Shown here piece by piece: positions 29,231 through 43,597 of a stretch of 64,000 nt of DNA; position 1 is the stretch's first letter, and each line of letters opens with the position of its first letter. The position numbers were made by a program, and so were the translations under genes. The notes under the pieces were generated by a model that saw only the letters and a list, made by a program, of their open reading frames with translations, was not told the origin of the DNA and did no database searches. This DNA comes from Psilocybe cubensis (taxonomy: Eukaryota). The stretch is from positions 3,286,001-3,350,000 of the forward strand of contig CM039002.1 in assembly GCA_017499595.2 (NCBI GenBank), read 5' to 3'.

Positions 29231-31600
29231 CACACGGCTACTGCACCCGCGAACATCCCAATCGGGAAGGCGCGCATTTAATTCCCCCGCGTCATCCAAA
29301 CCCACCCCGACCAATCCATCCCGCCACCACCCCCGAACCCTGCGCAAACAGCGCCGCCGCATTCTAGGCGCTGCTGGCTACCGACCCGTATTTTTTTCAG
29401 CCCAAACGGCGCCCCCAACGACGAGCAACGCTATTCCGAACGGCCGGCATGCGTATTGACGCATTGTTTGGTGCAGCTGCCCAGCACGTGCTCAGACGCG
29501 GCAAATGCATCAAATGTGGCAACTGGAAACTGCCAGGCTAGATATATACACAGGCGGCCGCTGGACACATTTTTGGATGTGTTTGGCCGATGTATGTCAG
29601 ACACAAATAAACATGTGTCTGCCACCTCCATCCGATATCAGTGGGTGACACAACAGGCCGAAATTCATGTGGCTGCCACATAAGTGCCAAGCACCGTTTG
29701 TGTCAGCCACATTCTAGCAAATACATATTTTTTTGTAGGCTTTTCATATGTATTCACAGTATAATATCATTGTGAAATTTTATTTTTAGTCTTTCATACA
29801 AGATTAGGTTATAATAAAACACCATATATTGAGCATGAAGCTGAAGCTAAATAACTACTAATCTAATGTCTATCCTATAAAGTACTCACTGGGTTATTGC
29901 ATCCACAAATACCCATTCCACAGAGCCAAACTATGGTGTCGACGATGGCGATCGATTCCGGCTATGGCGTTGACAATGTTGTGTTGCGCATCCAACTATC
30001 ACCCATTCTCCAGAGCCAAACTATGGTGTTGACGATGGCTATCGATTCCGGCAATGGTGTTCTTGGACCTTGTCAAACTTCAAAGCACATATTCTTGAAC
30101 CTGTGGTGTTAAAATAAGTAATTTTTGCCATGGATAGCTGTCTAAAAATACTCAGCAATAAGCAGGTTCTTGCACCAGTGCGCGATCTACAAATCAAATG
30201 TCAGTCACCAAAAAAAAACTATGCCCAACCATGCCGCTCAACGCGTTCCCACATATTGGGAATCTGGATCTTTCCAGTGCATGGCTTTTAGTACATGAAA
30301 GGGCTGGATCTCTTAACAATGCACGGCGGAAAACACGGTGCCGCTGTGCGAGATCATGGAGGAAAAGATGAAAGCGATAACTCGTTGCTGTTGATCAAAT
30401 GATCACCGGTGCCAAACACTAGCAAACTGAATATTAGGGGCTACATGTTCTCAACATCAACTTCAGATTTAGTTGTGTTTACACATACATTTCCGCATAA
30501 TTAATAACTATATTGTAGTGGAGTCTAGTGGCTAAAAAGGTCTACCTGTTGAAGGACCACTAAATAATTGAGCAATTGCATTACCAAAATTTAAATGAGG
30601 TTCAGGCAGCCTCGAAGAAGAATTGGAAGGAAAGGACTGTATAGTGGTGGGTTGTGGGTCGGATGTGACATCGCTAGGGCTGGTAAAAGAGCGCTCGGAA
30701 GGGTGGCTTGAGAAATCTAAGCCTTTATTGGTCCTGAGAGAGTCCATCTCCAGACATTCAGCAATAAATCTATTCACAAGCTTAGCATAACTCATTGAGA
30801 ATACAAGAGAAAACTCGGACTGTTTCAACTCAGCTGTATTATCTCCCAGCTCATCGTCAAGCCTCTTGAGCCATTGATCAACTTTGGACCAATAGTCTTC
30901 GCCATCAGCCACCCGACCGCGAGTTTTCCCAGCGGGAATGTTTGTTTTTTGCAATTTACGTTTTTTGGTAGCAGAATGACCCGAATCGCTAGAGTTGTCG
31001 GTGCTTGGTGTTCCAAAATCCTGGTCATTGTTCTCCTCTTCTGAGTTGTTGTCATCCTTCTCAAGTTCAAAGGCCGAAAACGTAGATGAATGGTCCCAGA
31101 AAAACCGCCGCTTTACATTGCCACGTTAGTGAAACTTTTTGAATCAGAAATATTGAAGACACACCAATAACACATGTTTTGAGAGGTAAGCTGTGTTGGA
31201 ATTTGCACCAGACTCTGACGTAGGCAGACGATATTTCACAATGAGGCCCGCCGCAAATTCTTGCACAGAAGTAAACTTTGGGCCTGGAGTTATGCTTTGT
31301 ATGATCTTTAATTTCACACATCAGTACACGGCATATGGTAAACCGGACAACCACACACCTCTTTTTGAAGCGTGTTTCTCTGAATCGTACAAACGGTTTG
31401 TATATGCGCCATCCATTTGGCCTCACGTCCCAGCCGATTCAGGATGTTGTCAAGGTAATTGTCTGCGGGCTTTTTTTTCATCTTTGCCTGCAAATGCATT
31501 TGTTTTAGACCGCCAATTAAAGTGAAAAGAACGCACCTCAACATCGATGTGAAGCGTCTTAAAGGACTGTCTAGAGGGCTTTAGAAGCTCTTTGATACAG

Positions 31601-32228
31601 TGAAGTGAGTTATGGTTGTGTGTGTGCGAAGCTTGCAGACTCCGTCTGCAATGTCCAAGGTTGTAGATAATGTCTGAATGGTGTAGCAAGATGCAAGTTG
31701 GAGTTTTAATTGAGAGAAAATCGAAACAGATCGATCCTTGCCGAGTGCGATTCACTCCGAGACAAGGTGGACGAAATGTGAGGGAAAAAAAAAAATAGCT
31801 CTGTATTCCACTAAAGTCTCGTCTCCCACTACCTAAGTTAATATATAGTAATTTGTTATCTTCGCCAAGCTGTTACTGCTGCGTGCTGAGCCAGACACCA
31901 CCTCCTCCGTGACACTCGTTTCCCTGTTCGTTGCGCCTGTGGGCGCTTTGACAGGGGCTCATCAATGCTTGGCGGTCGTGGTTATTTCCTTATTCGACCC
32001 CCCTTGGCGAGTGTGGCGCACGCACTCGTATGCTGTAGTTTGAAAAGACTTATCTTGCATTTTGTCCCTTATCTTCCCCTGTGTGTGATAAGGTCATCGG
32101 TGCAGCGCTCCTGTATCACGTCGGAAGTCGCATCCGTCGGCACAGCTATGGGCTTTTGCTCTGTCTCGTGACGCCAGGCTTTTGCTATCGCGCGCGCTTT
32201 TGATCGCAGACGGTAGTGGGTTCCCACA
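31601..32228 (-). repeat. Gypsy 3' LTR
   Basis: Matches 38759-39386; I found one mismatch (31945 G vs 39103 A). PPT GGGGAGG on the minus strand at 32229-32235. Confidence 0.97.
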
Positions 32229-32271
32229 CCTCCCCGGTACTATAAATGTTGACCTCTGTGTCAACCTGGAA

Positions 32272-32944
32272 ATGCCCATCCAAACACTCAATTCGGACTT
32301 CAGCACCACTTTCATCATGCTTAGAGTTTTCACCGAAAACAGTATCCACCGAATCAACCTCTTTGCTACCGAACACTGGCACCGAGACACGAGCTTTACG
32401 GTTGCCGCCGGCATGCGCGTCATTACGGAGGGCAGCCATGGACCGCGAGGCGACTTCTTTAATTTTATCCACTTTCTTGATGCCGTGGTAAGCCTAACCA
32501 TTCTGCAAATGTTTCCACGTATATTAACCTATGGTGTGACAGCGCGGCATGGCGAGCAGCCGCCACGCGATGCGGGAGCTTGACTTGATAGTCAGTGTCT
32601 TTGACCGTGACCTCGTCACGTTCCAGAGTGCATTGGAACGAGGATCTGCGGACCGTGTTCCCCAGTGTGCTCAACGCGATGCCATTGCAGCAGTCTACAC
32701 CATTATGAACGGGGAGCAACGCGAGCGGTTTGATATAACCTCGTGGTATATTGAGCAGATCGAGAAGGCTATTTATGGGGAGGACGATTCCATTTACGTT
32801 TCCTCTGACAGTGGAACCGATGACATGCCACTTTTGGAAGGCGAGAACGAGGCCAGGGATGAAGGCGAGCCGGAACAGGATGTCACAGAGGTGATTCCAG
32901 ACAGTGGTTTGCAGTGGGGCATTAGGAGCGGGCGCCGGGTGTAA
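32272..32944 (+). CDS. Antisense spliced ORF (205 aa) inside the gypsy element
   Basis: TATAAAT at 32241. Exon 32272-32487, intron 32488-32542 (GTAAGC...TTAAC...ACAG), exon 32543-32944 in frame. Confidence 0.65.
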
Positions 32945-33073
32945 TAAATAGTTATTTGTTGCTTGTTTTTTGTTTATTTGACAGTTTTTTAATCGGTCGA
33001 TTCTAAGTGACAGTCCTTGAGAGAAAAGAAATTTTTATAGATTAGTAGGGTTGGCTGCAAGGTTGGGACGGTG

Positions 33074-36000
33074 TCAAAATTCGACGTCCAATACATTTCC
33101 GCTGTCGTGAGTATTCTCTTCAACGTTGGCGAGGTCATCGTCAACCATGGATGTAACAGGAACCGACGCTAGGGTCCGTGGGAAATAAGGAATCAGCCTG
33201 AACGCTGCAAAGCGCAAGCGGGATATGGCTCCATCTAGCTCGCTGAGAATATATGAGCCTCCTTGTGTTCGTTTCACTACCAGCATTGGTCCGACATATC
33301 GAGGTTTTGTCTTGTTTTGTAGGCCCTTGTCGAAACGTGAATTTCTGATAAGCACTAGACTTCCTGGTTTAAGGTCAAAATCGGTCCTGTTTTCCATGTG
33401 TTTCTTCTCTAGCTGTTGCACTGCTGCCCAACGCGACTTGAATACCTGTTCCTTGACACGTTGTAAGTCTGCTGGCCGCTTTTGAAGCATTCTAGCTCGA
33501 TGTGCGATAAGGTCTGTTGTCGATACCAAGGACTCCAAAGGCGGTGCTAAATAGGTTGCTTCAGCGAGATCAAAAGGGAATAAAGGCTCGACGCCGTGTG
33601 CGAGGTAGTAGGGTGAATAACCCGTCGACTTTTGTATGGTAACTCTCTCCGCCCAGAACACCGAACTCACCACATCCAGCCACCTTGACTCGTCCCCACC
33701 GCAGGCTTTTATTATTGCTTCTCGTACATCATAATGCCTACGTTCAACCGGGCCTTGTGCACGAGAGTTATAAGGAGATATTCGGATGTGGTGAATATGA
33801 TATCGTTCTGCAAGATGTTTGGCAGCAAGCAGGTACTGGGGGGCATTGTCTGTCACAATCACTTCTATTGCACCCCACCGTGTCAGGATCTGAAGCAGGA
33901 AAGCGGCTATTTCCGTATAGTCGTCGGTTCGAGTGGCCACCCATTCGGGGTATGATATTAACGAGCAACGGGCGTGTATTATGTAGCGGAATCCGCGCAC
34001 TTTTGGCATGAGCATAGTGTCAACATAAACCTTTCTGAAAAGCCCTGCCGGCATTGGCACTGTCGCTGGTATCGAAACTTTCATGGTATTTCGGGTCTGG
34101 CATTCATGACACGTCTTTATGAACCATTTGACGTCCAATTCCAGATCTGGCCACCAGAATCGTTCGAGAAGTCGCATCCGCACTGTATAGATCCCTTTAT
34201 GACCTAAATCATCGTGTGCTTGTTTGAGAAGTTTGTAGCGTAGCTCGGGCGAAATGACAAGTTTGTGTCTGCCATGCCTGTCCTTCCTCCACAGCTGCTT
34301 GTCCAAGATGAAGTAGTTTGATACCAGACGAAGAAATTTGGTATATTCTGCATCAGACATGTTGTCTGGTCGCTTGGGTGCTTCTAGAAACATACGAATG
34401 GCTTCGAGGTCCCGATCGCGCGCTTCGCTTTTGCTGTTACGAGGAATAGCCACATTGACATGTATTGCTGCTACAAGAGCAGATGCATCCACTCGCAATG
34501 CTTTGTTGTTACTGGTGACTTGAGCCGCACGCACAGCCTGGTGGTTCAAGCACTCTATTGCAAAGGAATATGCATTATCTATCCAGTCGTCATGATCTTC
34601 TGCTTCGTCTGGATCGTTGTCTGCTTTGGGTCGCCTCGATAGTCCGTCCGCAGACGCATGGTCTTTGGCAGGGACGTGCCGAAGTTTGAAGTCAAATAGG
34701 AGGATACCCGCGATCCACCGGTTTATGGTTGCGCTCGGTTGGATATCTGGATTGTTGATCATACCTTTTATGTATTTTGCATCGACCTCCACCACTAAGT
34801 TGTGCACGCCGACTATGAACACCCGGTACGCTTTGAGTGCCCGGAAGAGGCCATAGAGCTCAATTTTTGCTTGTGAATATCGCTGCTCGCGTTCGTTCCA
34901 TGTTATGGAGCCAAATCTGCACAGGTATCTTCTCCCATCGTCACCCAGCTGTGATAGAATAAATCCTACCGCGATGCACGACGAGTCTACTGCGAGTATA
35001 ACCTCATTTCCAGATGTGTAGTCGATTGCCCTGATAGCCGGACACGTTCTGGCCAGTATCTTCATCTTCTCCAGTGATGCAAACTGAGTCTCCCCAAACT
35101 CGAAGTCCATGTCCTTTCGGGTGAGCTGTACAAGCGGTTTGGCATGAATAGCAAAATCCTTGATGAACATTCGTATGGTCCCTAGTGTACCCAGGAAGCC
35201 ACGGACGTCCGTAAGGTTTCGTGGAATTGGCCAATCTGTTATTTTCTGAACCCGTGATTCGTCTGGCACGCGACCATTATACGTGCACTTATGTCCAACA
35301 ACAATGGCGCTTTCGACACACAGGAATGACTTCGCCGCTGAGAACGTACCCCCTGCGTGTTTGATTCGTTGGATCACCCGATTTACATTCTGGAGATGCT
35401 CCCATACAAAGCGCCTAATCCCTGGGTTTTCTCTGATCGTTTCAAAGGATCCCTCTTCCAGTTCATATCGCGTTGCCGGCCCTTTCACTGGAATATCGTC
35501 CACAAAGGGCATTGTTATATGGGGAATCTCATCTTGTAGTAGAAATGTTGTGTCGCCGTGTTGGATTTGCATCGAGTTCGTGTACCCCATTGGAATAGAT
35601 GTCAATCGGAAGGTGCCTAAAGGCGTCTGGAATGTTGTCAAATCGCGTGATTCGACTGCCAGAGACCGTTGATCGAACCCTACAAACAGATCAAACACTG
35701 CATAGCAGCCTCGTCCGCCAAAGGCTTCAGCATACTGTTCTACCATGGGCGGAAGTGCGCTATCCTTAATTGAGACCGCATTTAATGGTTGTAAGTCGTG
35801 CACAATTCGTAGAGATTTCCCATCTTTCTTGAGTACACAAAACCAACGCGACCGGTACGATGAATTTGACGGTTCATATATCCCCGACGATATTTTGTTT
35901 TTGATGACCTCTACCACTTGATGGAAGATTCCTGGAGGAATGGGGATGTTACGCAGAACCCATGGGACATGTTCAATGGTGGGTATCACCACTGGGTCGA

Positions 36001-36440
36001 AATACTCGTCACTAAACTTTCCTTTCTCGGATTCATCCCATGCGAACGCGGTTTCGTGTAACAGTATTATGTGGTGCACCAATTTCTCTTCCTCTGGCCA
36101 GAGGAATCCGTCTGGGTTAACTTTCATGGCTTCTTTTCTTTGTAGTGTGTATCGTTGTCCTGGTGTAAATTCGGGCGGTCTGGTCGGAAGAGCAGGCAGA
36201 TCTGCAAGCGGGTCTGACGGAATGCGTCGTACGATGCGAAACTTTTCGGGTAGCGTTGTTGCGACGGGTTTAATTCGATTGGCGACTTTTTTATATGCGA
36301 GCGATGCGTTTTGATTTCGGTTATCAGACGTGTAATAGCGAGAAAAGGAATTGGATTGAGAAATAGAAACATTTGACGTATTTATGATGTGAAGACTCTG
36401 GTCTCCTCGATTTATATTCGATTCATCGACCCCTAAAAAT
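33074..36440 (-). CDS. pol: Gypsy pol (RT, RNase H, integrase), probably reached by -1 frameshift
   Basis: LRIVHDLQPLN, FDLFVGFDQ, PMGYTNS, PFVDDIP; LAVDSS, ELYGL; HHCC finger (AHDDLGH...CHEC); integrase core DTML/TDNA/VERRH. The frame is open upstream of Met 36127 to the slippery site. Confidence 0.93.
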
Positions 36441-38499
36441 CCACACTGACTGTGGCGGCTGTTGTGCTGCTTCGGTCCCGTTTGCGAGTTGGAACTGTTA
36501 TTTCCGCTCCAGAGTTAGGATCAATCATAGTTACTTCAGATGACCCATCCTCAAAGTGCCTAGTGACCAGACGCGTGAGGCACATGAAAGGCAGTCCTAC
36601 CAAGAGTTCATATGGTGCGTCTTGAACCACTTGCACCTGCACATAGAAGTCATATCCTCCAATGGATATCTTCAGGTTTTGTATGAGTCCGAGTGTCTTG
36701 TCCTTGCTTGCATTGGCTGACTCCATAACCATCACATGGTCGGACCTGATTGGAACTGCCAGCTTCTCCCAGATGTCCTTCCTGATTCCAACAATTTGGG
36801 ACCCTTCATCCATGATCCCTTCGACCTTCATGTCCCCAATGGTAAAGTCTAGACATCTCAACTCTTGTACATGGTCTGCCACTACCATCCCTTCTTTGTT
36901 GGGCAAGAGCGAAGCAAGGTAAGCCGAGTATTCTTCACTCTGAGGCATTCCTACTACCATGCTAGACCCTGTCTGCTCGGTAGGGATGCGTCTGGCCGTA
37001 ATCAGGTCCTTGAACTGTCTCCTAACCTCTGGTGCCACTGCCAGCAGTTCCCTGTTGGACAGTGTCACTGTGGCGTCTAGTGCTGTATCCAGTACTTTCT
37101 TCACGATTTTTACCTCTTCTATGGGTGTAGAGTACCTGAACTGTGTACTGTTGGCCGAGTGCGATGCAGGTATGGTTGGAACGGCCGGTGCGAGTGTCTT
37201 GGTCGGGTCGTGGGAAATCGTATCTGCCGCCTTGGTTTTGCTTCTCGTTGCTGGTCCCCCGGTTCCCTTGGTTCCGAAGTACTTCTTTCTGGTATCGTCA
37301 ATTTTCTTTTGTGTGGATGCCACAAGCGATTCCATGATTTGTAAGTCCTCAATTTCGCGTTCGGTAGGTGGTGCAACCTCGTTGTGCGCAAAGTCCATCG
37401 CGGCGGCGAAAGCCGACGTCGTGGGAATCTCCCATTTGAACTCCGAACCTGCACTCACCATGTTTGATGATACGGTTGGCGAGTTAGCAGATTTGCTTTT
37501 ATGCCAGTTATCAACACGCTCCATGATATTCCTTCCCGGTGCGGTTCGAGGGGTGACACGTGTCCCATCTGGTAACACCAAGAAATTTTCGCTATTGCGC
37601 ACACAGAGCCCCTTTTTGATATATTCCGCCGCTTTGGCACAACTATGTTGATAATGTGATGGATCAGAGCAGAAGGAACAGTCGTTGTTGCGAGGTCTAG
37701 GTGCTCCTTGAGTTTGCAACGTCGGGTACCCTTGATTCTGGGCGTTTTGGTACACGTTTGATGGAGCATGTTGTAAGTTCATCTGTTTTATGAGTTCCAG
37801 TGCCAGGGCACTCATGTTGAAGTTGCTCGTTTGTTGCAGTGCTGGAGCAATACTAGATATATCAAAATGCTCGCGCTTGACTGAGGGAGACGCTTCGAGT
37901 GCTGGCGCCACAATTTCGGTGTCGTCGTGGTTGCAGGATAATATGAATAGTGCTGCCTCGCATATTTGGTTTAGCGTGTAAGGGTCGTCACTGTGATGCT
38001 TCGGGTTTTCAGCCCTTAGCTGGGCTCGGACCTGTACTCTGAAGGCATAGTCTAGACCTCTCATGAACAGGTTACTTATTTCACGATCGTTCAACTTGTT
38101 TTTCGATTTAAGGAACCGTGAAATTTTCGAAAATGCGCGGTAATATGTTCCAAATTGTTCCGAGTTTGTGATTTGTCCGGCAGCTTGTTTTTCAGTGAGC
38201 ATTTCCAGATTTGCAACTGAGTATTTCCTGTCTCCTGTCGATCCGGGATACTGTGCAAGCAGCTCGCGTTTGAAAGCAATCCAGTCATCACCTGACGAGG
38301 TATCTAAACCGCTCCATAGCTCGTGTTCGTCGCTTCCTGGGGCATAACGAATCGTCCAATCGATGGTCTGCTTGGGGGTAAGCTCACAGCTCGTTGCTAG
38401 CTGTTCAATGTCGTCTAGAAACATAGGAAGTGACCCCGCAGTTCCATCGAACTTGGGAGCGGAGCTATGGTTCTTGCTAGGCATGTTTGGTGGCGCCAT
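36433..38499 (-). CDS. gag: Gypsy gag-protease polyprotein (688 aa)
   Basis: APKFDG capsid-like start, CSFCSDPSHYQHSC zinc knuckle, aspartic protease IMDEGSQIV...LLVGLPF. Confidence 0.92.
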   Translation of the reverse strand: MAPPNMPSKNHSSAPKFDGTAGSLPMFLDDIEQLATSCELTPKQTIDWTIRYAPGSDEHELWSGLDTSSGDDWIAFKRELLAQYPGSTGDRKYSVANLEMLTEKQAAGQITNSEQFGTYYRAFSKISRFLKSKNKLNDREISNLFMRGLDYAFRVQVRAQLRAENPKHHSDDPYTLNQICEAALFILSCNHDDTEIVAPALEASPSVKREHFDISSIAPALQQTSNFNMSALALELIKQMNLQHAPSNVYQNAQNQGYPTLQTQGAPRPRNNDCSFCSDPSHYQHSCAKAAEYIKKGLCVRNSENFLVLPDGTRVTPRTAPGRNIMERVDNWHKSKSANSPTVSSNMVSAGSEFKWEIPTTSAFAAAMDFAHNEVAPPTEREIEDLQIMESLVASTQKKIDDTRKKYFGTKGTGGPATRSKTKAADTISHDPTKTLAPAVPTIPASHSANSTQFRYSTPIEEVKIVKKVLDTALDATVTLSNRELLAVAPEVRRQFKDLITARRIPTEQTGSSMVVGMPQSEEYSAYLASLLPNKEGMVVADHVQELRCLDFTIGDMKVEGIMDEGSQIVGIRKDIWEKLAVPIRSDHVMVMESANASKDKTLGLIQNLKISIGGYDFYVQVQVVQDAPYELLVGLPFMCLTRLVTRHFEDGSSEVTMIDPNSGAEITVPTRKRDRSSTTAATVSVDF

Positions 38500-38739
38500 C
38501 TTGGTTGCAATTCCCCAATTTACTGGAACAAATGTGGGTCGGGTCGGGGACGACTGTGCAGAGGCGTTCGATGAATCCGATGACGAATCGGTTTCAGATA
38601 AAGGCTGGCGGTAGTGAAAATAATGGGGAAAATATGTAGGTGTTGGACGCGTTTCCGTGGCGTCTTGGGTGTTCTCGAGTCCCTCCTTGTTTGGGGCACT
38701 CGAGAATCAAGGATAGGGTGGTTTACAACCTTTAGAACC

Positions 38740-38757
38740 CCTCGCGGTGGGCTCCAG
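38740..38757 (-). promoter_or_regulatory. Primer binding site of the gypsy element
   Basis: TGGAGCCCACCGCGAG begins 2 nt after the 5' LTR and is complementary to a CCA-ended tRNA. The tRNA identity was not determined. Confidence 0.75.
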
Positions 38758-38758
38758 T

Positions 38759-39386
38759 TGAAGTGAGTTATGGTTGTGTGTGTGCGAAGCTTGCAGACTC
38801 CGTCTGCAATGTCCAAGGTTGTAGATAATGTCTGAATGGTGTAGCAAGATGCAAGTTGGAGTTTTAATTGAGAGAAAATCGAAACAGATCGATCCTTGCC
38901 GAGTGCGATTCACTCCGAGACAAGGTGGACGAAATGTGAGGGAAAAAAAAAAATAGCTCTGTATTCCACTAAAGTCTCGTCTCCCACTACCTAAGTTAAT
39001 ATATAGTAATTTGTTATCTTCGCCAAGCTGTTACTGCTGCGTGCTGAGCCAGACACCACCTCCTCCGTGACACTCGTTTCCCTGTTCGTTGCGCCTGTGG
39101 GCACTTTGACAGGGGCTCATCAATGCTTGGCGGTCGTGGTTATTTCCTTATTCGACCCCCCTTGGCGAGTGTGGCGCACGCACTCGTATGCTGTAGTTTG
39201 AAAAGACTTATCTTGCATTTTGTCCCTTATCTTCCCCTGTGTGTGATAAGGTCATCGGTGCAGCGCTCCTGTATCACGTCGGAAGTCGCATCCGTCGGCA
39301 CAGCTATGGGCTTTTGCTCTGTCTCGTGACGCCAGGCTTTTGCTATCGCGCGCGCTTTTGATCGCAGACGGTAGTGGGTTCCCACA
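38759..39386 (-). repeat. Gypsy 5' LTR
   Basis: Direct repeat of 31601-32228. Confidence 0.97.
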
Positions 39387-40151
39387 ACAGGTTGATTTAA
39401 TGGCCATCTAAAAGCTGGCTCAGACCACCATGTTCATAAAGGCAAACAATGACTCACCTTTTGTGCGTTTGATAACACAAAGTTCTCATCTTTTTGCAGC
39501 TCATAATCAGCCAAAAAACTGCTCAGCTGCCCGAGTCCTTGTAGATGTGTTTGCGTGGCAGTCAGTGCTTTATGCAGACGAACTTCGGCCCCAAACTGGC
39601 AGGCCAACATCATGATTCGACTTATCACTTCGGTGTAAGGAGGTTGCTCTTCAGGCATGGCTGTACAGATCTGCGGGTTTACGAGTTAGAAGCAGTTTGA
39701 TGTAGGCGTTATGTAAAAAACAAGTTTACCTGATAAAGAAAAGTGAGATCTGCACTGTGGTCGCTTGTGAGGTTGAATCGGTGAACCAGGTTGTCAATAA
39801 ACAGCTGTGTACCAGTTGGGCGGTCCACGTCACGAGAAACAGGCTGTGATGCAAAAGCTGGGTCAATCGAAGAATGAGACATTGTGGATTCAGAATCAAG
39901 CAAACGTCTCTTACCTTGCTTTTATACCCCAAGTTTGATTTGCCATGTTTGCCACAACAAACGAATCGCATCGCGTTCGAGGTCAATCAACAATTTGCGT
40001 CGTGTCACGTCGACAACAACAAACCTACGCGTCACATAAAAAGGAGGCGTCAAAGTTATTCCAAAGGTTTGCTCACCTTTTGTCTCACTCTCTCACTCCC
40101 TTAACCATCAGTCTGATATTTGTGTGGTTTCGTTATCTTGAACCGCTCAAC

Positions 40152-41304: not shown

Positions 41305-43597
41305 ATGAGGTTCAACATTCCCCTCATTCGCGTTCGTATAAATACCCGTCCCACCGGTAAGCAAACGTTTGTATATCAGAAACGCGACAGGGCCCAGCTC
41401 TCGCGTTGGTTAGAGGCTTGCCAGGCGAGGGATCACCCCTGGGCCAGGTCTGTCAAACTGCCAGCCAACGCAGGAGCTAGGGCGTGTCGTGATTGCAAGA
41501 ACCCTGCTCACCGTCGGTTTTTGCATGCATAGATGTCGGCCTGCCAATGGGCGCGCTATACGGTACGTCCTTGGAAACTTTTCTATGCATATACCGAGTT
41601 TTAAATCGGAAATCTGTTCAAGCAGACACGATCTGGGAGGGTGTATGCCCAGTGTCAGCCTGAGGTATGGGAGGATCCGTTGGCTTTTGACTTGATCTCT
41701 GCCTGGCGGGCAGCAGATGCAAGGGAGGACACAGACTTGTTAGATCTGGATCAAGGTGAGTCACCATGTTTGCCTACTCGTCATCTGCCCATTCACGTAC
41801 TTGTCAATAGATGTCTTGATTCCATCGACCGACGATACGTCGATGCCATCCGTTCACGACATCTGGACGCCGTCGATCCACGATGCGTCGAAGAATTGGT
41901 CGACGGACGATACCTGGATGCAGTTTACGAACAATACGTCGACGCCGACGGCGTTGATCCACGACGTGTCGACCCCGTCAACCCGCGAATCGACGACGTC
42001 GATCCACGACGTGTCGACCCCGTCAACCCGCGAATCGACGACGTCAGCCCACAACGTGTCGACCCCGTCAACCCGCGAGTCAATGCTGTCAGTCCATAAT
42101 GCGTCAACCCCGTCAACCCACGAATCGACGACGTCAGCCCACAACGCGTCGACGCCGTCAACCCGCGAATCGACGACGTCAGCCCACAACGCGTCGACCC
42201 CGTCAACCCGCGAGTCGATGCTGTCAGCCCACGATGCGTCGACACCATCGGTTGACAATATGTCGACACCGCCGATTGTACCTTCGCAATCGTCGACCAA
42301 GCTTTCGCTTTTGTTACCTCAGCGAGACCCATCCGTGCAAACCGCCAGCCTGAAAAGGCCATACGATGGGCTTTCCAACAGTCATCGCAGCCGCAAGTAT
42401 CAGCGGACGTTACAATACAATAAGCACGGACACGCACCAAAACCCAGTCTTTTAAGCATGCTTCCCAGCTGCCAGCCAGAGGCTCTCAACGTCAAGCTTG
42501 ACGCTTTGCCTGCCACGCAAGGCGCCTATGGTGCTAAACCAACAAAACCCCACAAAAGTCACCTATATAGCTTGGATGCCATCAAGGCCCTTGGGTTCCG
42601 CATTATACCTTGGGATGGATGGTGAGTTACAACTGTTCTGATCTGTTCAGTTTGATGGAGTTAAAGCTAATGCACTATAGCACCCCCGTCCCGTTTGTTT
42701 CTGAAGACGGACGTATTTTTATGGTTCTGGCAGGCCGTCCTAAGGACCCTGCATACGAACGTGCCACGGAGGAAGCATTCGATCTACTGAGGGAGGCCGG
42801 ACACACCACAGCGTTTACACACGAAGACTATTCAGAAAATCGTGGTCATTATCCCGCACTCAACATCGGCGTTACACACAGTGTAGGGACACACTCTCCA
42901 CTCAACCGCGTCCAGCGCCATCCCAAAATCACTGCCAAGCTCTTGCAGTCGGAAAGCATTCAACGAATGGCCAGTTTTGCCAGCAGTAAGTGACTCCTAT
43001 GCCTGTTTTGTGAACCTGTTTTTAAACACATCCACAGGTGCATTTGCTACATGGAGCCCTAAAGTGTACAACCACTATAAGTTGTACATGGATAAGATAT
43101 TCGCCAATGACTCCACGCTAGTCCGACTGTTTCGCCGCAGCATATTTCCGGCGGCCACCTTCAACCTAGGGTCTGTGGTTTGCACCATCCCGCATTTTGA
43201 TATCAAAAACTGTCCATATGGCTGGTGCGCCATCCAGTCTTTAGGGAAATTCAATGCCAAAAAGGGTGGTCACTTTGTGGTGTGGGGCCTGAAAGTGGCC
43301 ATTGAGTTCCCTGCAGGATCTACCATCCTTATGCCGTCCGCCGTCCTAGAACATTCAAACACCAGCATTGAACACGGAGAGGAGCGTGCTTCCTTTACTC
43401 AGTATGCTTCAGGTGGCCTGTTTAGATGGGTTGATTATGGCTACCGCACCAAGAAGGAGTTAAAACGTACAAACCCCAAGCTTTATCAAGAGCAAATGGA
43501 GCTTAGGCCAACACGATGGAAGAGGGGGTTGGGCATGTTGTGCACCTTACAAGATCTTATTTCAAAAGCTGCGTTTGAGGTCTCTGGACAAGTTTGA
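41305..43597 (+). CDS. TET/JBP-family dioxygenase with Ser/Thr-rich repeat N-terminus (5' exon structure uncertain)
   Basis: LGFRIIPWDG|CTPVPFVSEDGRIFMVLAGRP..RGHYPALNIGV; TIPHFDIKNCPYGWCAIQSLGKFN..GGHFVVWGLK.AIEFPAGSTILMPSAVLEHSN..ERASFTQYASGGLFRWVDYG (HxD...H...R intact). Confidence 0.88.
41956..42245 (+). repeat. 45-bp CpG-rich coding minisatellite (~6 units) in the TET/JBP gene
   Basis: GTCGACCCCGTCAACCCGCGAATCGACGACGTCAGCCCACAACGC variants encoding STPSTRESTTSAHNA. Confidence 0.9.

Follow-up and report, generated by a model that had tools for sequence, protein, structure and literature searches.

A probable spliced accessory gene antisense to gag-pol in a Ty3/gypsy element of Psilocybe cubensis

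Antisense genes in retrotransposons

Extra genes running backwards in retrotransposons have already been described in plants and in Botrytis, where the brtn gene of Boty elements was reportedly the subject of a 2011 study by Zhao. This antisense gene is found in Botrytis and Sclerotinia (PMC8365987, PMC4227169), and PMC7264820 places it among the aORFs located between pol and the 3′ LTR. Plant examples described in the same position and orientation include gene23 of maize Grande, rice RIRE2, ORF4 of Silene Retand (TRP28), and ORF2 of Phaseolus PvRetro13 (PMC7264820, PMC11963269). They are described as mostly without similarity to known proteins, with a regulatory or accessory role proposed for them, and the Grande gene is said to have its own promoter upstream (PMC7264820). 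What antisense accessory genes do is unsolved in all of the described cases (Grande, RIRE2, Retand, and Boty). A further parallel is the HBZ gene of HTLV-1, which adjoins the 3′ LTR at the 3′ end of an element that replicates by reverse transcription; it encodes a protein in antisense, and its main transcript is spliced. Its antisense promoter is placed inside the 3′ LTR by PMC7264820.

Within a 64-kb window (64,000 nt, the whole stretch of P. cubensis DNA that was analyzed), a Ty3/gypsy element contains what is quite probably, with some room for doubt, a real, conserved, and spliced accessory gene on the strand opposite gag-pol. It is a well-preserved example of a known arrangement, not a new principle; the antisense protein family is nameless, and the copy is intact. 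Two of the features by which aORF-3R genes are recognized were found: the gene resides in an LTR retrotransposon that has gag and pol, and its coding region, on the opposite strand, is flanked by the stop of pol on one side and the 3′ LTR on the other. On a third, presence in most copies of the family with conservation comparable to that of the other element proteins, the data consist of two P. cubensis copies at the protein level and of relatives with 30–64% identity. A literature search, its hits examined selectively, found no report of an antisense retrotransposon gene of this kind in a basidiomycete, and a search with the locus-tag prefix JR316 returned only an unrelated paper. The sequence-only reading of this locus had mentioned antisense extra ORFs from plant gypsy lineages; this is right as far as the survey in PMC7264820 goes, but incomplete, given the fungal brtn gene of Boty.

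Position and orientation relative to pol are thus shared with the plant aORF-3R genes. The plant elements differ in having long regions between pol and the 3′ LTR (2.9–6.6 kb as given for Retand), compared to 845 bp here, and the word “intron” occurs nowhere in the main text of PMC7264820 or PMC11963269, whereas an intron is integral to the P. cubensis gene. Boty, too, is a Ty3/gypsy element of fungi in which an additional gene runs opposite to gag-pol, but its host is an ascomycete and its gag-pol is described as having a CHROMO domain (PMC4227169); no chromodomain was found in the 1146-aa pol frame of the P. cubensis element (Pfam, E ≤ 0.1). The likeness to brtn is one of description only, and no named Botrytis protein was among the matches of the exon 2 and profile searches described below. 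HBZ offers the likeness of an antisense-oriented intron kept through replication. It belongs to a vertebrate retrovirus, however, and encodes a bZIP protein, whereas the P. cubensis protein has neither a bZIP nor any other Pfam domain, and the P. cubensis TATA box is just inside the internal region rather than in the LTR.

The P. cubensis locus is an unusually clean case of the arrangement: an intact and very young element, a compact gene intact in two copies, a confident structural model of its product, and a short conserved linear motif accessible to mutation. Provided that P. cubensis is amenable to culture and transformation, the role of such genes for the element would be directly testable. 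The locus also indicates that an intron can be stably kept in a reverse-transcribing element if it is pointed against the genomic RNA.

The host element

The element is on the minus strand and is complete, with LTRs, target-site duplication, primer-binding site, polypurine tract, and open gag-protease and pol frames. It is bounded by a 4-bp target-site duplication, ACAG (left copy 31597–31600, right copy 39387–39390), with the element edges at ...GATACAG/TG and CA/ACAGG. The 3′ LTR (31601–32228, minus strand; TG...CA) is 628 bp long and has a single mismatch to the 5′ LTR (38759–39386, minus strand), which is also 628 bp. The polypurine tract (PPT), GGGGAGG, adjoins the 3′ LTR (32229–32235, minus strand; its reverse complement is GTACCGGGGAGG, followed directly by TGTG). 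The primer-binding site, TGGAGCCCACCGCGAGGGGTTC, begins 2 nt past the 5′ LTR (38735–38756, minus strand); from its TGG start we infer that it pairs with the 3′ end of a tRNA, and no tRNA gene was found within the 64-kb window.

The gag-protease frame (36436–38706, minus strand; 757 codons) has matches to DUF4100 and to aspartyl protease, both under the Pfam cut-offs. It overlaps the pol frame (33077–36514, minus strand, with its stop at 33074–33076; 1146 codons) by 79 nt, in a different frame. The pol frame contains reverse transcriptase, RNase H, and integrase zinc-binding domains, with RT_RNaseH and Integrase_H2C2 exceeding the Pfam cut-offs and RVT_1 weak, and the domain order of the element in Pfam is of the Ty3/gypsy type. 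There is no second copy of the element within the 64-kb window. The CpG observed/expected ratio is 0.98, with no CpG depletion in the element. Judging from its sequence, the element is young and probably still mobile. The C-terminal end of pol (33077–33200, minus strand) is acidic and ends in VTSMVDDDLANVEENTHDSGNVLDVEF; in its hydrophobic-acidic composition it is loosely like the motif in the antisense protein's tail that is considered below.

Layout and signals of the antisense gene

The plus-strand gene takes up nearly all of the 845 bp that separate the stop codon of pol from the PPT. A TATAAA sequence (32241–32246, plus strand), the candidate core promoter, starts 13 nt inside the edge of the 3′ LTR, directly past the PPT. 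The coding part of exon 1 (32272–32487, plus strand) comprises 72 codons when counted from the ATG at 32272, from which the sequence-only reading had started the protein; the conserved ATG is at 32317. The intron (32488–32542, plus strand; 55 bp) has the form GTAAGC...TTAAC...ACAG, with the branch-like A of TTAAC 15 nt upstream of the acceptor, and shifts the frame by +1 between the exons. These splice signals are of the canonical fungal type. Exon 2 (32543–32944, plus strand) comprises 133 codons and a TAA, and encodes the rest of a helical domain, the conserved motif IYVSSDSGTDDMPLL, and an acidic tail. The stop codon is overlapped by AATAAA (32943–32948, plus strand), a candidate poly(A) signal, with a T-rich stretch next to it. 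The gene and pol converge, with 129 nt between their stops. Joined, the two exons encode 205 aa, and among the last 55 residues of the product there are 16 D or E versus just four K or R (pI 4.05). The protein has no cluster of cysteines. Other GT..AG pairings in the region, giving 190–209 codons, were dismissed for their poor donors and acceptors.

The earlier reading had described a gene between pol and the 3′ LTR, opposite gag-pol, with a TATA box, an ATG, a 55-bp intron containing TTAAC, an in-frame second exon, and an acidic tail. All of these are present, with the gene at 32272–32944 (plus strand), the pol stop at 33074–33076 (minus strand), and the LTR ending at 32228. The 205-aa product that it proposed holds up in part: the frame exists and matches a second P. 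cubensis gene model except at two residues, but the start at 32272 is doubtful. Conservation with a relative from P. cyanescens sets in at Met16 (32317) and does not extend to the 15 preceding residues, and the NCBI model JR316_0006488 also starts at the ATG at 32317. The distance from TATAAA to the ATG is 26 nt for 32272 and 71 nt for 32317, with no out-of-frame ATG between the two. On these sequence grounds a start at Met16, giving a product of ~190 aa, appears likelier than the 205-aa form; from the TATA spacing together with the conservation from Met16, initiation some tens of bases past the TATA box would yield the 190-aa protein or both forms. Since the TATA box is internal to the element, it is the 3′ LTR alone that is paired with it, and no comparable outward transcription would be expected from the 5′ LTR.

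Gene models and relatives

From Met16 onward, the spliced product is exactly that of JR316_0006488 (Psilocybe cubensis, 190 aa), to which the exon 2 translation taken alone is also 100% identical. JR316_0002878, a second P. cubensis copy on another contig (205 aa), has two substitutions relative to the 205-aa product of the window, and both NCBI models share the window's splice junction. The P. cubensis gene models are predictor output (FunAnnotate, with RNA input going unmentioned in the annotation account of PMC8220353). A note of caution for annotation follows from the locus, in that two models entered as “hypothetical protein” in the reference genome belong to retrotransposons.

An HMMER scan with exon 2 over 1.84 billion representative proteins (E ≤ 0.001) returned seven proteins including the window's own, the six others having 30–64% identity at E values from 4e-41 to 1e-5; in all, eight further ORFs, grouped in six clusters, match exon 2. 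A profile search added CVT25_014418 from P. cyanescens, with an overall E value of 3e-54. Exon 1 and this protein have 58% identity and 81% positives (E 3e-25), and exon 1 of CVT25_014418 ends at FLDAV, as does that of the window, although 28 residues are missing from its model where exon 2 begins. All 10 relatives match just one frame of the window, on the plus strand at 32272–32941. Conservation of both exons, each in its own frame, implies that they are joined through removal of the 55-nt intron, with its shift of frame, or by some equivalent. The earlier proposal of an intron-bearing accessory gene antisense to gag-pol is thus borne out at this level, with both exons conserved as protein in P. 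cyanescens. For exon 1, an apparent match to the N-terminus of one other relative (P0011) in a MAFFT alignment was set aside, as BLASTP gave no confirmation of it.

In the family alignment, D118 and Y124 are invariant, and M127, Q131, F135, W140, and Y141 are nearly so. The family is small, with 12 sequences in all. The relatives are known as proteins or ORFs alone and come from short contigs of 651–4553 nt, as repeats often do; the contig with CVT25_014418 is 1268 nt long. No confirmed relative locus was found in metagenome contigs, queried with a single relative and by alignment of closer relatives, and nothing was found in viral contigs with either the JR316_0002878 protein or the C-terminus of pol.

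The predicted protein

Structure prediction was among the checks that the sequence-only reading had suggested, and it gave a confident helical domain. In an AlphaFold2 model built from an 11-row alignment, residues 21–130 have block mean pLDDT values of 85–97, a helix at residues 63–84 spans the splice junction (residue 72/73), and the tail is disordered from about residue 151. The model thus suggests a compact all-helical domain of approximately residues 20–150 followed by a disordered acidic tail. Conservation is greatest in the helices around QRDAIAAVYTIMNGEQRERFDITSWYIEQIEK and in a tail motif, [IV]x[IV]-Ser/Asp run-[DE]MPxL, which is present in seven of 11 family sequences.

SUMO-interacting motifs, in ELM-style notation, have a core of [VILPTM][VIL][DESTVILMA][VIL] followed by an acidic/Ser run. 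Four of the 11 sequences fit this pattern (P0007, P0013, P0009, and P0011), but the window's protein and its closest relatives fail to, with a Tyr in the core, and the tail motif was not taken to be one of these in the family as a whole.

Searches for a known counterpart of the domain returned little. Pfam has no family for the exons or for the 11 members, with the best scores (DUF6336, E 0.061; WDR75 propeller, E 0.079) being noise; none of the 11 matches a bZIP family at E ≤ 1, and no TRP28, PMD, or SMC domain was found by Pfam in the antisense protein. A sequence profile search of the PDB reached only E 0.75 at best, and Foldseek gave no match to the PDB or BFVD at E ≤ 0.001. The best Z score in a wide VIA-align comparison was 9.1, to generic helical repeats and under the level that the tool deems meaningful for helical proteins, and the ESM Atlas had no usable match. 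The possibility of a reversed copy of gag was rejected, with hhalign probabilities of 0.3% against the element's own Gag-PR and 0.1% against its Pol.

Proposed mechanism and alternatives

If the gene works as its layout suggests, transcription would start just downstream of TATAAA, at the border of the PPT and the 3′ LTR, with the reversed U3 of the 3′ LTR serving as the upstream region of the antisense promoter. The 55-nt intron would be spliced out, joining the two frames, and translation would begin at Met16 or at both of the in-frame AUGs. The end of the message would be past AATAAA, with 129 nt left before the stop of convergent pol. On the sense genomic RNA the intron would read as CT...AC, and would stay unspliced there and be passed on to new copies; it would persist by virtue of its antisense orientation to the reverse-transcribed RNA. 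The product would then act in trans as a protein-protein adaptor, combining a helical domain with a linear motif, in the propagation or regulation of the element. Such a role is the most likely one by analogy, modelled as it is on what has been proposed for the antisense aORFs of plants and demonstrated for antisense proteins of retroviruses, and it is also the weakest step of the mechanism. A more specific version can be imagined, which at present seems rather improbable: the adaptor may bind a chromatin or silencing factor of the host via its helical domain and tail motif, which is SUMO-interaction-like in some relatives, and so guide integration by the chromodomain-less integrase or blunt silencing. 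It would then be a fungal counterpart of retroviral accessory proteins, with the antisense intron as a device for carrying a spliced gene of cellular type through reverse transcription.

Other readings of the locus start from the gene itself. That there is none, its frames being open by chance and the models being predictor artefacts on repeat DNA, is very hard to credit, even though the gene is known here from sequence. In 500 dinucleotide-preserving shuffles of 32230–33073, a single ATG ORF of at least 131 aa arose 17 times, a point in favour of chance; a two-exon ORF equal in length to the longest real one (208 codons under the same loose rules), or longer, arose just once. A stop-free frame of 189 codons on the minus strand (32465–33034) also covers exon 2, but appears to be its shadow, as it has no ATG and is matched by no relative; the only listed ORF in that minus-strand region is 84 aa, with a TTG start, and the six changes seen in a variant copy of the element (from sequencing run X1, described below) would be one synonymous and five non-synonymous if read in this frame. 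Exon 2, on the other hand, has homologs among 1.84 billion proteins at E values as low as 4e-41, exon 1 is conserved separately, and identities of 30–64% contradict the idea that the relatives are near-identical DNA copies clustered in error. The same identities, with the invariant aromatic and charged positions, bear on whether the antisense RNA could be the working part, as double-stranded RNA or through transcriptional interference, with the reading frame incidental. An overlap of ~700 nt between the antisense unit and the genomic RNA would be expected, and non-coding antisense RNAs are described for micropia and other elements in PMC7264820; but the relatives are recognizable only as protein, a confident helical model would be unexpected of an incidental frame, and a regulatory RNA would have no need of a frame-restoring intron, all of which makes this account improbable.

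A gene could also be real without serving the element, as a hitchhiking host gene or fragment that was transduced and then copied along, its relatives being host genes or their remains. Transduction is a recognized origin of aORFs in the account given by PMC11963269, the relatives are known without their genomic surroundings, and the GC3 of the antisense gene (0.63) is above that of both pol (0.48) and gag (0.52). The same account has transduced aORFs in one or a few copies, however, compared to diverged relatives down to 30% identity here. The gene also fits tightly into the space between pol and the PPT with a TATA box and an AATAAA of its own, and two P. cubensis copies have it intact. Those relatives that have names are all small orphan proteins, that of P. 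cyanescens being on a repeat-like contig of 1268 nt, and no longer protein (360–2000 aa) containing the domain was found, although this last is weak evidence. A passenger origin thus seems unlikely, and an accessory gene of the element remains the preferred reading.

A variant copy and other features of the window

A variant copy of the element was found in sequencing run X1, whose type is not on record and which was taken to be DNA; the share of the stretch contained in it is 0.70, and the comparison was made over 31601–38700. Two other runs under the P. cubensis label, presumed to be RNA, contained almost none of the stretch, and contigs over the compared range came from X1 alone, without joints; neither outcome bears on expression. 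This copy is ~1% different from the window and retains the intron without gaps. Changes in the antisense gene comprise three synonymous and three non-synonymous ones, and the 29 changes listed in pol comprise 18 synonymous and 11 non-synonymous ones, including one stop; in both genes they are too few to gauge selection. The X1 copy may be the same insertion in another strain, because the rate of differences between strains is of this order: Illumina reads of a different P. cubensis compared with the reference are reported to have a SNP every 99 bp (PMC8220353).

The differences in X1 are mostly transitions, with 66 of 90 being C>T or G>A. Among the listed pol changes, 16 of 29 are at CpG, and one converts an Arg codon to a stop. 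Deamination of methylated CpG in a copy under silencing would produce a pattern of this kind. Past the LTR end (32228/32229), contigs from X1 have two different sequences, neither of them matching the element's internal region or 5′ flank as present in the window, so more LTR copies or solo LTRs of the family must exist.

Two features beyond the element were also recorded. About 3.5 kb past the 5′ LTR, a 236-codon frame (42887–43594, plus strand) has a weak match to Tet_JBP (2OG-Fe dioxygenase) at E 3.3e-4, under the Pfam cut-off. Nearby, a plus-strand frame of 293 codons (41744–42625) with no Pfam match contains a tandem array (41913–42272) of eight 45-bp units, detected as six overlapping 135-nt copies that are 73–100% alike.
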